From Escherichia phage vB_EcoM_ESCO10, in sequence record OM386655.1: a DNA stretch of 64,000 bases; one strand, 5' to 3'. Position numbers and translations under genes: made by a program. This document shows positions 37,113-39,156 of this stretch, one piece after another; position 1 is the stretch's first letter, and each line of letters begins with the position of its first letter. Under the pieces are notes generated by a model that did no database searches, was not told the origin of the DNA, and saw only the letters and a program-made list of their open reading frames with translations.

Positions 37113-37693
37113 TTATAAACGCTCTCAGTAATTTCGGTCAATTCATCGATTTGGTAGTAATGAGATTCTACCATGCTACGATTAAGCATAATATCATGGA
37201 CGAAAGTAATAGGCAACTGAACCGTAGAGTTCACACGATGACGTTTAATAATTTTAGTCATAATGATTTCGTCTGCATACGGCAAGGCAGCTTCTAATAA
37301 CGATGGACCACCAATAATACTTACATCAGTATTCTGCCCAATAAGCGGATTATATGGCGCATTAGGGCTAGATAACTGAATTTCACCACCGATTACAAAA
37401 GTTATGTATTCATCCCAAGTGATATAGAAATGAGCCAGGTCTCCATCTTTTGTTTCAGGATAACCACGAGCAATATCAGCTACTACAATATGGGTGCGGC
37501 CTGGTAACAACCCTGGTAATGATTGGAAGGTCTTGGCACCCATAATCATAGTAGTTCCTTCAGTACGAGCCTTGAAATTCTGAAGGTCCTTTTTAATACG
37601 TCCCCATGGAAGACCGTCATTAAGACCAAAAGCGTATTCGTTTTTATCGTCTACAGTTTTGGTCGGGGCGCAAGCGAATACTAATTTAATCAT
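37109..37693 (-). CDS. frd: dihydrofolate reductase
   Basis: synteny; DHFR-like N-terminus; 194 aa. Confidence 0.85.
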
Positions 37694-37932
37694 TTTAATT
37701 CCTCAATATAAACTATGTCAGACGGTTCAATATAATTACTAGAGCGTTGGCCATGATAATTATAAATGCAAAAGTAAAATTGGTTTTTAAATTTATTTCG
37801 CACTAAAGAAACTGTATAGTAATCACCATTTGAGGTTTGAACGACAAACAAATTATCATAATAAATTAGATTTTGGTAGATATCAGCGATATCTATGTCT
37901 TCCCCAACCTTAAGCAAATTTAGTGTTTTCAT
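37690..37932 (-). CDS. hypothetical protein (80 aa)
   Basis: ORF track. Confidence 0.45.
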
Positions 37933-37941
37933 TATATTTCC

Positions 37942-38184
37942 TCAAACAGACTTTTTCACAATTTTCCAATCGGCTTTGAACTGGTCAACATCAGAGTGGT
38001 GAATCCAGAAACCAGATGAGCTACCATCTTCATAAAGAGGACAACCATCACACTCATCTTTCCAACCCATTGCACACAAAGTTTCTTCTGCTTTTTCCAG
38101 AGCTTCTGGATTATTACCTTGGATTGTGAAGTACCATTTGCCTTTAACTTCTGAATCTTTGATTGATTCACGTTTTAATTTCAT
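37942..38184 (-). CDS. hypothetical protein (80 aa)
   Basis: ORF track; GAGGAGAATAAAATG SD. Confidence 0.5.
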   Translation of the reverse strand: MKLKRESIKDSEVKGKWYFTIQGNNPEALEKAEETLCAMGWKDECDGCPLYEDGSSSGFWIHHSDVDQFKADWKIVKKSV

Positions 38185-38210
38185 TTTATTCTCCTCAAGT
38201 TGATAAGGCT

Positions 38211-38240
38211 ATAGTATCACTACCATAGCCTGTTGTAAAC
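38211..38240 (-). promoter_or_regulatory. sigma70-like early promoter
   Basis: minus GTTTAC, 18 nt, TACTAT; 7-bp inverted repeat 38206-38212/38225-38231. Confidence 0.45.
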
Positions 38241-38242
38241 AT

Positions 38243-38470
38243 TTATTTTTGAATTAAGCCCATATAAAATTCAGCATCTTCAGCATGCATACCATCACAA
38301 TACTCGTCAGCCATAAAACGAGTCAGGTCTTCAAGAGGACCTTGGATTTCAATTTGGATACTAAAGAATTGAGTATCTTTGATGTAAGCCATACTCAAAG
38401 AAGGATAACGATTACGGATAACTTCGTAAGTGTATTCAAAATCGACGATATCAATATTAACTTTAGCCAT
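38243..38470 (-). CDS. hypothetical protein (75 aa)
   Basis: internal ATG with GAGGAAAATAAAATG SD; track TTG extension rejected. Confidence 0.5.
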
Positions 38471-38475
38471 TTTAT

Positions 38476-38511
38476 TTTCCTCATGTTTTGATATGTCTAT
38501 AGTATCATGTT
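38476..38511 (-). repeat. 36-bp promoter/5'UTR cassette, copy 1 of a perfect direct repeat
   Basis: TTTCCTCATGTTTTGATATGTCTATAGTATCATGTT identical to 39162-39197. Confidence 0.8.
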
Positions 38512-38527
38512 TAAAGGGGTTGTAAAC
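38499..38527 (-). promoter_or_regulatory. sigma70-like early promoter
   Basis: minus GTTTAC, 17 nt, TACTAT. Confidence 0.5.
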
Positions 38528-38531
38528 TACT

Positions 38532-38801
38532 TTATGAAATTTTATCAAGCCATTTGCCAAGTTTAATCATTTCTTTGGTGGCCTTTTCCATACTTCTGAA
38601 CTTAACTAATAAAGGATAAGTATCTACACCCATAACTAAAGTGGTTACAAGACTATGCTCACCTACAAGCCATAGAGAATACGTTTGAATATCAAGTCCG
38701 TAATTTCGGTCTTTATGGACACGTACACCCATCACTTCAAACTGTTCGCTGGCTTTTTCTACTGCATCCAGGAAATCATCTTTAGTCATATTAAATTCCA
38801 A
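38532..38801 (-). CDS. hypothetical protein (89 aa)
   Basis: ORF track. Confidence 0.45.
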
Positions 38802-39156
38802 AGGTAGCTTTAATCAGGGCAATGACTTCAGCAGCATTTTTGTGATTAACCTGCACATGAATGGTTTGGGTGTCAACAACAGGAGCATCTTCATCAACTT
38901 CTAGGAAGTGTCGGAATTCACCTTCAGCGAGTTCAAAGTACTCATCAGCATCATCCATACTATCCAAGATGGTACCATCTTTCATTTCAACTTTTTCGAC
39001 AAAATAATTGCCATCAATAAAGCACATATCCAGGACTTTGAAGGAACTGCCATGCTGTTCCATCAGCTTGACCATGCGCGAATTATCATCCGGACAGTCG
39101 GCGATGAAACGTTTTTTAGCAGCAGGGTCTAATACGTAAGTTTTACCAGTTTCCAT
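38791..39156 (-). CDS. hypothetical protein (121 aa), acidic
   Basis: ORF track; GAGGAAATAAAAATG SD. Confidence 0.5.
   Translation of the reverse strand: METGKTYVLDPAAKKRFIADCPDDNSRMVKLMEQHGSSFKVLDMCFIDGNYFVEKVEMKDGTILDSMDDADEYFELAEGEFRHFLEVDEDAPVVDTQTIHVQVNHKNAAEVIALIKATFGI

Follow-up and report, generated by a model that had tools for sequence, protein, structure and literature searches.

The interval between the dihydrofolate reductase gene frd and gene 32 of Escherichia phage vB_EcoM_ESCO10 (sequence record OM386655.1, analysed here as a window of 64,000 nucleotides) raises the question of whether its five small open reading frames (ORFs) are unrecognized accessory genes for host takeover or anti-defence, as the initial annotation had proposed, or members of families already known from T4-like phages. 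All five are present on the minus strand at the confirmed coordinates and encode proteins of 80, 80, 75, 85 and 121 residues. The genes and their boundaries are as follows.

37109-37693, minus strand: frd, dihydrofolate reductase, downstream boundary of the cluster
37690-37932, minus strand: ORF1, 80 aa, phrog_4308 (RB14ncORF233c), overlapping the frd start by 4 nt
37942-38184, minus strand: Frd.1 homologue, 80 aa, DUF5417, by profile match to PF17438
38243-38470, minus strand: Frd.3 homologue, 75 aa from its ATG, acidic (pI 4.3), PF05798
38532-38789, minus strand: ORF4, 85 aa from its ATG, phrog_4423 by profile match (JS98 orf232, RB51ncORF239c)
38791-39156, minus strand: Frd.2-family protein (ORF5), 121 aa, paralogue type 'a', PF03197 FRD2, phrog_622
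39266-40171, minus strand: gene 32, single-stranded DNA-binding protein, upstream boundary of the cluster (ATG at 40171, MFKRK...)

As variable early-gene regions of T4-like coliphages go, the locus is ordinary, and its content is already known. Its best nucleotide matches are Dhakaviruses, with VR5 being 96% identical over 85% of the region and Dhakavirus matches extending over 20 kb at ~88-89% nucleotide identity. Gp32 is 96-97% identical to its counterparts in VR5, NC-G and JS98 and 64% to that of T4, and Frd is 98, 86 and 73% identical to the proteins of NC-G, VR5 and T4, respectively. For each of the genes, public phage genomes contain an annotated homologue whose protein is 96% identical or more. 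It is highly probable, in our view, that the variable early genes between gene 32 and frd described here are those of a T-even coliphage of the genus Dhakavirus, similar to JS98 and VR5; this judgement covers jointly the assignment to a Dhakavirus early region, the three early units and the cassette-linked shuffling that we propose below from the sequence.

Judged by their substitution patterns, all five ORFs are real genes, because their dN/dS values against orthologues (0.05-0.18) indicate purifying selection in each case. The opposing view, that they are chance reading frames and that the direct repeat described below is a mobile-element remnant or a duplication introduced by sequencing or assembly, has as its sole argument the shortness of the ORFs (75-121 aa) in an AT-rich genome. 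Its probability is negligible: it is already contradicted by the dN/dS values, by homologues that span the full length of each ORF in between 48 and 1419 phage records, by confident AF2 folds for both proteins modelled (ORF4 and Frd.3), by the conservation of the repeat at both sites in VR5, JS98, NC-G and 04086, and by the promoter and Shine-Dalgarno (SD) elements of which the repeat is composed.

Three of the five proteins belong to the Frd.1, Frd.3 and Frd.2 families (Pfam E values of 1e-32 to 1e-38) and can no longer be called unrecognized. As previously stated, T4 has frd.x genes at the same position, exactly three, but the contrast drawn between those three and five new genes here does not survive, since three of the five are themselves frd.x genes and only ORF1 and ORF4 are extra relative to T4. 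Even for these two, nearly identical proteins are annotated as hypothetical in RB14, VR5 and JS98. The Frd.1 homologue matches PF17438 full-length and above the gathering score (120.7 bits, cut-off 23.9; E 3.1e-35; residues 1-78) and is 75% identical to T4 Frd.1. The family comprises 1419 phage records, Webervirus siphophages included, and its alignment displays an invariant C-x-x-C-P..Y.DG...GFWI motif. In T4, RB14, VR5, JS98, S16 and NM4.3, frd.1 keeps its relative position upstream of frd, with both genes on one strand. The Frd.3 homologue matches PF05798 (Phage_FRD3) over residues 1-75 of 75 (129 bits, cut-off 28.1; E 9.8e-38) and is 73% identical to the T4 protein and 100% to that of NC-G. 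A confident AlphaFold model predicts a ferredoxin-like fold with b-a-b-b-a-a topology, for which structure searches returned generic neighbours only. A RelB-like antitoxin assignment of Frd.3 was rejected: PF18506 matched 12 of 21 members over only 18-25 residues and below cut-off, the top scores depended on extra N-terminal residues introduced by a start called too far upstream, and a PDB profile search yielded no match. Similarly, a weak match to a TRADD-like N domain (PF20694) was not upheld across members or by the fold check.

The Frd.2-family protein matches PF03197 over residues 27-120 (112.8 bits, cut-off 29; E 1.3e-32), is 98% identical to VR5 gp168 and has dN/dS values of 0.05-0.18. 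The family alignment splits into two types, of which the window holds type a only. Type a proteins (JS98 2a, 04086 2a and S16 gp159.1) are 73-81% identical to the window protein, in contrast to only 33-38% for type b (T4, RB14, JS98 2b and S16 gp159), T4 Frd.2 itself sharing 34%. By sequence, the window protein is thus best described as an old paralogue of the T4 gene product and not its orthologue. This paralogy bears on any transfer of the CRISPRi-ART data for T4, in which frd.2 was scored marginally 'Fit' (0.83, p 0.027) and frd.1 and frd.3 'Not fit'. In addition, an amber mutant of T4 frd.2 plates normally (PMC12152347), and in laboratory hosts T4 can do without its versions of these genes, or almost so. 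For T4 Frd.2, a five-stranded LSm/SH3-like barrel was predicted in the N-terminal half (Kim et al. 2025, PMC12152347). What ORF5 shares with the GoF/MotB.1/Frd.2 LSm-like family is its FRD2 Pfam membership; the LSm-like prediction belongs to the T4 Frd.2 model, to which the 'a' paralogue is linked by sequence family alone. Because of this published prediction, Frd.2 would be the best candidate among the five for an RNA-related role; no RNA effect was shown for wild-type GoF or MotB.1 (PMC12152347).

ORF4 starts 1 nt past the frd.2 stop and is strongly constrained (dN/dS 0.05-0.06). Its AF2 model (pLDDT 87.7) predicts a small alpha/beta protein of a-b-b-b-a topology, for which structure and sequence searches gave no informative relatives, only generic structural neighbours. 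An hhalign comparison with Frd.3 gave a probability of 0.3%, and ORF4 was dismissed as a relative of that protein. The family counts 349 records in T-evens, Phapecoctavirus, Tunavirus, Webervirus and one Pseudomonas siphophage, in every case with small hypothetical early genes as neighbours, and carries an invariant KD(R)NYGLDxQTYSLW loop. A HMMER search of 1.84 billion representatives found no domain fusions, the 12 clusters all being stand-alone proteins of 64-98 aa. Outside the T-evens, ORF4 and Frd.1 are not linked; they occupy the same variable Webervirus slot but in different phages. ORF1, by contrast, is patchy (48 phage records). It is 96% identical in protein and 97% in nucleotide sequence to its RB14 homologue, within flanks of 62-80%, and homologues lie directly upstream of frd in RB14, 04086, S16 and NM4.3. 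As a relative of the LSm/SH3-like Frd.2 it was discarded (hhalign probability 1.1%).

The initial annotation had assigned early promoters to three of the genes and a perfect direct repeat bracketing two of them. The following elements bear on both statements.

38211-38239, minus strand: putative early promoter Pe3, TTTACA-N17-TACTAT, predicted to drive frd.1, ORF1 and then frd
38467-38536, minus strand: promoter/SD/ATG cassette, copy A, exact core 38476-38511
38499-38526, minus strand: putative early promoter Pe2, TTTACA-N16-TACTAT, predicted to drive frd.3
39153-39222, minus strand: promoter/SD/ATG cassette, copy B, exact core 39162-39197
39185-39212, minus strand: putative early promoter Pe1, TTTACA-N16-TACTAT, predicted to drive frd.2 and ORF4
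39230-39249, minus strand: intrinsic-terminator-like hairpin 3' of gene 32, GGGAAGAC-TTCG-GTCTTCCC followed by a T run; stem-loop of cassette 1

The three promoter-like sites were confirmed as TTTACA-N16/17-TACTAT upstream of the frd.2, frd.3 and frd.1 homologues, and each is followed by GAGGA(A/G)A and an ATG. They agree with the published T4/PST early consensus TTTACW..N17..TAYWAT (PMC4122927). TTTACW-N16-18-TAYWAT occurs 12 times in the window versus 0.95 expected, with 12 of 12 copies on the coding (minus) strand; a generic sigma-70 scan found no enrichment in the region (10 sites versus 11.4 expected). That these sites act as promoters, and where transcription would begin, is deduced from sequence. 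The repeat proved to be the promoter/SD/ATG cassettes of Pe1 and Pe2, which bracket two genes. Its perfection holds for 36 nt (38476-38511 = 39162-39197), within a 70-nt repeat whose copies are 84% identical overall. About 20 nt of it are consensus common to other early promoters in the window, yet its 36 nt form the longest exact run among 66 promoter pairs, the next being 23, and it is kept at both positions in VR5, JS98, NC-G and 04086. The gene 32 hairpin is unusually stable (-15.5 kcal/mol, z = -3.6), with none of 200 shuffles reaching its stability. An Rfam scan of the whole window gave no matches.

Comparison with related phages visualizes how these modules are arranged. The window order is 32-frd.2-ORF4-frd.3-frd.1-ORF1-frd. 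Its frd.2a-ORF4-frd.3-frd.1 core is shared by VR5 and NC-G, whereas JS98 has frd.2a-frd.2b-ORF4-frd.3-frd.1, phage 04086 frd.2b-ORF4-frd.3-frd.2a-frd.1, and T4, RB14, S16 and NM4.3 frd.3-frd.2-frd.1 (in T4, 32-frd.3-frd.2-frd.1-frd). With T4, the window has in common the same three families, the interval, the strand and early transcription; it differs in gene order, the type 'a' Frd.2 and two extra genes. With the Dhakaviruses VR5 (gp168-gp171), NC-G and JS98 it shares the architecture from gene 32 to frd.1, both promoter cassettes included, and protein identity to VR5 reaches 98-99% for Frd.2, ORF4 and Frd.3; JS98 additionally possesses frd.2b. Homology with these three phages is lost between 37706 and 37930-37955, where the slot beside frd holds ORF1 (80 aa) in the window, ORFs of 113 and 63 aa in VR5, a 111-aa ORF in NC-G, and orf228 and orf229 in JS98. 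ORF1 instead forms a patch of 97% identity to the Tequatrovirus RB14.

Several of the homology breaks fall within cassette 1. In 04086 the frd.2a block (window 38799-39199) sits elsewhere, and its two alignments overlap at 39137-39199; matches to VR25, ECML-359 and TH15 end at window 39168-39170. The frd.2a module occupies different cassette-flanked slots in different phages. The two cassette copies are 686 bp apart, and recombination between them would leave gene 32 and frd.3 adjacent, as in T4. The cassettes resemble the promoter-early stem-loop (PeSL) cassettes of T4-type phages, for which a module-shuffling model has been published (Arbiol et al. 2010, PMC2839356; PMC4122927). Shared features are the AT-rich upstream region, TTTACW-N17-TAYWAT, SD and ATG between small genes of a hyperplastic region; promoter, SD and start codon are found in all three window cassettes, and the cassettes coincide with rearrangement breakpoints between relatives. 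In contrast to complete PeSLs, the upstream stem-loop is present in cassette 1 only (z -3.6) and absent from cassettes 2 and 3 (z +0.37 and +0.54), and degraded 'half' PeSLs are allowed (Comeau et al. 2014, PMC4122927). Other breaks, such as those between JS98 frd.2a and frd.2b and between ORF1 and frd.1, coincide with the ends of genes, outside any promoter cassette; therefore, cassette-mediated exchange explains only part of the rearrangements. Taken as a pattern in the sequence, the breaks at promoter cassettes and gene junctions match what PeSL module shuffling would produce.

We propose that the locus consists of three leftward early units, each with a T4-type sigma-70 early promoter and a strong ribosome-binding site. 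From Pe1, frd.2 (type a) and ORF4 would be transcribed; from Pe2, frd.3; and from Pe3, frd.1, ORF1, frd and td. Cassettes and short conserved gene ends, as suggested by the relatives, may act as crossover points at which small gene modules are moved, duplicated, deleted or swapped between T-even phages. The earlier view of the cluster as plastic, early-transcribed and made up of small genes is supported by these sequence features. Its five proteins, small, soluble, mostly acidic (pI 4.3-6.1) and devoid of an enzymatic signature, would be produced within the first minutes after infection and would bind macromolecules of the host or the phage, an activity of use under certain conditions.

One alternative is that such binders include an inhibitor of bacterial immunity, with the plasticity of the locus reflecting an arms race. 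Early transcription, small and mostly acidic products, the patchiness of ORF1, the occurrence of ORF4 among small hypothetical early genes of unrelated phages, the Webervirus relatives of Frd.1 in the same variable slot as those of ORF4, the fast evolution of Frd.2 with old paralogues gained and lost, and the dispensability of the T4 counterparts on laboratory strains would all suit a cassette in which at least one of the five proteins blocks a defence system. However, neither the profile searches with the products nor the structure searches with the ORF4 and Frd.3 models uncovered any described anti-defence protein: in PHROGs, Pfam, NCBIfam and the PDB, sequence searches matched families of unknown function only and no solved structure, the two models showed no fold similarity to a described inhibitor, and the weak TRADD-like_N and RelB-like matches of Frd.3 did not hold. 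Moreover, some nine out of every ten T-even records from Escherichia/Shigella contain Frd.1 and Frd.3, and with 73-75% identity to T4 both are as conserved as Frd (73%) and more so than gp32 (64%), which is not usual for fast-evolving counter-defence genes. An anti-defence or host-takeover role of the cluster is a prior expectation, possible if unlikely. The outcome that the initial annotation took as speaking against it, namely all products matching T4 proteins with established non-defence roles, is not what we found, because the T4 frd.x proteins matched by three of the five have no established role. ORF4 could be a new kind of small protein that inhibits a defence system or host factor shared by enterobacteria, because horizontal transfer has carried it into five or more unrelated phage groups and it combines an invariant loop with no detectable relative of known function; we regard this as rather unlikely, and the same reading for ORF1, Frd.1 or the Frd.2 paralogues, although possible, as less likely still.

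Alternatively, the proteins might modulate or scaffold the neighbouring gp32, Frd, Td and NrdAB, with ORF1 being co-translated with dihydrofolate reductase. In all T-even genera examined, the cluster is indeed flanked by gene 32 and frd-td-nrdA, ORF1 homologues in four genera invariably precede frd directly and run into its start, and Frd.1 carries an invariant CxxC. Yet relatives of Frd.1 and ORF4 reside in early regions of Webervirus, Tunavirus and Phapecoctavirus, where neither annotation nor tblastn revealed an frd or td neighbour in the stretches examined; the slot upstream of frd is filled by unrelated genes in VR5, JS98 and NC-G and is empty in T4; knock-down of T4 frd.1 or frd.3 has no fitness effect; and starts and stops that overlap this tightly are found throughout T4-type genomes. 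We therefore consider such auxiliary functions quite improbable.

The Dhakavirus early region with its proposed three units and cassette-linked shuffling matters mainly for correct annotation, its layout being that of VR5 and NC-G. The literature that mentions frd.1, frd.2 or frd.3 gives no function, and the functions of Frd.1, Frd.2, Frd.3 and their two companions are a long-recognized gap in T4 biology. In compact form, the locus also illustrates how modules are shuffled in nature in association with promoter cassettes. Two other clusters of the window had likewise been listed as unassigned (53413-54925 and 58243-60464); among their products are an Arn-like and a DenB-like protein.

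Every gene in the gene 32-to-nrdA part of the window lies on the minus strand. The ORF coordinates bear out the initial annotation in its count of five small ORFs and in their sizes, and the early promoters that it had noted are present as three predicted T4-type sites (Pe1 to Pe3), each of the form TTTACA-N16/17-TACTAT with GAGGA(A/G)A and then an ATG downstream.

Features from gene 32 to td, in the direction of transcription
39266-40171, minus strand, gene 32
39212-39185, minus strand, early promoter Pe1
38791-39156, minus strand, 121-aa ORF of the frd.2 family
38532-38789 (counted from ATG), minus strand, 85-aa ORF (ORF4)
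38526-38499, minus strand, early promoter Pe2
38243-38470 (counted from ATG), minus strand, 75-aa ORF (frd.3)
38239-38211, minus strand, early promoter Pe3
37942-38184, minus strand, 80-aa ORF (frd.1)
37690-37932, minus strand, 80-aa ORF (ORF1), last before frd
37109-37693, minus strand, frd
36255-37112, minus strand, td, followed by nrdA

All five ORFs are genes. Their dN/dS values are 0.05-0.18 (Nei-Gojobori; orthologues in VR5, JS98, NC-G, 04086, T4 and RB14), full-length homologues occur in 48 to 1419 phage records per ORF, and both proteins that were modelled (ORF4 and Frd.3) have confident predicted folds. They had been described as unrecognised, which is wrong for the three that belong to T4 frd.x families and overstated for ORF1 and ORF4, since these are already catalogued (phrog_4308 and phrog_4423, both absent from T4). 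The original observation is partly confirmed, standing for ORF number and size, and its interpretation is partly supported, standing for a hyperplastic early region. The locus represents an ordinary and already known type of T-even hyperplastic early region.

Frd.1 (PF17438 DUF5417, E 3e-35) and Frd.3 (PF05798, E 1e-37) are 75% and 73% identical to their T4 counterparts, and Frd.1 has a CxxC-P..Y.DG...GFWI motif that is invariant from T4 to Webervirus. The Frd.2 family (PF03197, E 1e-32 for the window protein) consists of two old paralogue types: type a (JS98 Frd.2a, 04086, S16 gp159.1) shares 73-81% identity with the window protein and type b (T4, RB14, JS98 Frd.2b, S16 gp159) 33-38%, the window having only type a and T4 only type b. 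ORF1 homologues, always directly upstream of frd and overlapping its start, include RB14ncORF233c, matched at 96-97.5% protein identity in some Tequatroviruses, and relatives in Gelderlandvirus S16 (53%) and Moonvirus (42%). ORF4 matches JS98 orf232, VR5 gp169 and RB51ncORF239c; more distant relatives (41-60% identity) are found in Phapecoctavirus, Tunavirus, Webervirus and one Pseudomonas siphophage, where their neighbours are always small hypothetical genes. In Klebsiella Webervirus-type siphophages, a single variable position at the start of an early operon is taken up by an ORF4 homologue (RCIP0005) or a Frd.1 homologue (VAC113), each in a different phage (L012 6001-6267, L013 6001-6282).

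The phage is T4-type, because gp59, gp33 and DsbA lie upstream of the locus and AsiA and Ndd are encoded elsewhere in the window; nucleotide searches assign it to Dhakavirus as its genus. VR5 is 96% identical over 85% of the locus region, and NC-G and JS98 are 88-92% identical to it. Across 20 kb even the best-matching records reach only about 88-89% identity to the window, and the phage itself is therefore a distinct lineage. Its td is uninterrupted (36255-37112, 285 aa), without intron or I-TevI. The gene 32/gene 59 junction (40172-40267), like that of JS98, lacks the homing-endonuclease gene present in T4 (SegG), VR5 and NC-G. The nrdA-td interval, occupied in T4 by nrdA.1 and nrdA.2, contains a DUF4326 gene (35900-36301; PF14216, E 2e-21), whose listed TTG start overlaps the td 3' end.

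Pe1, Pe2 and Pe3 fit the T4/PST early-promoter consensus TTTACW..N17..TAYWAT (PMC4122927). The window holds 12 copies of this motif against 0.95 expected, all on the coding strand; the other nine are at 59441, 59025, 58242, 55638, 42487, 29468, 23417, 23011 and 14489 (minus strand), and several share the extended core catgaTACTATagacNtatcaa. Judged from sequence, three transcription units are implied: Pe1 would serve frd.2a and ORF4 (1-nt gap), Pe2 frd.3, and Pe3 frd.1, ORF1 (9-nt gap) and frd (4-nt overlap with ORF1). The promoter-to-ATG cassettes of Pe1 and Pe2, reported as a perfect direct repeat, are exact over a 36-nt core (38476-38511 = 39162-39197, from -10 box to SD) but across 70 nt their identity is only 84%. 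Other early promoters in the window share some 20 nt of this core (catgaTACTATagacNtatcaa). Since this exact run is the longest among 66 promoter pairs (next, 23 nt), duplication or gene conversion between the neighbouring cassettes is suggested.

Gene order in relatives
T4: 32-frd.3-frd.2-frd.1-frd
RB14: T4 order plus ORF1 before frd
S16, NM4.3: frd.3-frd.2-frd.1, several small ORFs, ORF1 homologue, frd (both Frd.2 paralogues in S16)
JS98: 32-frd.2a-frd.2b-ORF4-frd.3-frd.1-orf229-orf228-frd
04086: 32-frd.2b-ORF4-frd.3-frd.2a-frd.1-X-ORF1-frd
VR5, NC-G: 32-frd.2a-ORF4-frd.3-frd.1-(other ORFs)-frd

The 04086 counterpart of the frd.2a block at window 38799-39199 is placed between frd.3 and frd.1, and its alignment overlaps that of gene 32 at 39137-39199, within cassette 1, where matches to VR25, ECML-359 and TH15 also stop (39168-39170). 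Recombination between the cassette copies, 686 bp apart, would delete frd.2a and ORF4 and bring gene 32 beside frd.3, a T4-like arrangement. Such breakpoints agree with the promoter-early stem-loop (PeSL) model, in which composite terminator/promoter cassettes mediate module exchange in hyperplastic regions, partly via mini-circles (Arbiol et al.; Comeau et al.). In departure from the model, an upstream hairpin is found at cassette 1 only (the gene 32 terminator, z -3.6), folding of cassettes 2 and 3 having revealed none, and other rearrangement junctions lie at gene ends, outside cassettes. ORF1, together with roughly 30-60 bp at either end, shares 87-100% nucleotide identity with Tequatrovirus RB14, against 62-80% for the flanking frd and frd.1 sequences, which indicates a recent exchange between genera via crossovers in conserved gene ends.

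Sequence searches against Pfam, PHROGs, NCBIfam and the PDB led only to families with no assigned function. For ORF1, found in 48 records, and ORF4, found in 349 from unrelated phages, an anti-defence role may reasonably be assumed as a prior, perhaps also for the Frd.2 paralogues. It suits Frd.1 and Frd.3 less well, because these occur in roughly nine-tenths of Escherichia/Shigella T-even records (organism-name counts relative to gp32) and are conserved between T4 and the window as strongly as Frd and more than gp32. As an alternative, a role connected with the adjacent nucleotide-metabolism genes is weaker, since relatives of Frd.1 and ORF4 are also present in phages whose examined stretches showed no frd or td neighbour, either annotated or detected. 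T4 Frd.2 has a predicted LSm/SH3-like N-terminal barrel, common to GoF and MotB.1, and a frd.2 amber mutant plates normally (PMC12152347). CRISPRi-ART gave T4 frd.2 a marginal 'Fit' call (0.83, p 0.027, versus 3.29 for gene 32) and rated frd.1 and frd.3 'Not fit' (PMC11879866). The abundant NAD-capped phage RNAs include T4 frd.3 mRNA.

Two further clusters had been called unassigned. Between asiA and motA (53413-54925; five minus-strand ORFs) this fails for a 65-aa Arn-like ORF (53679-53876; phrog_4452 'anti-restriction nuclease', E 2e-32) and holds for the remainder, which have no Pfam match and match only PHROGs with no assigned function. At 58243-60464 it holds for three ORFs with no assigned function, but not for a DenB-like endonuclease IV (59458-60018; phrog_1360, E 3e-89) or a 65-aa crAss001_48-related protein (60267-60464; PF21825, E 7e-20).
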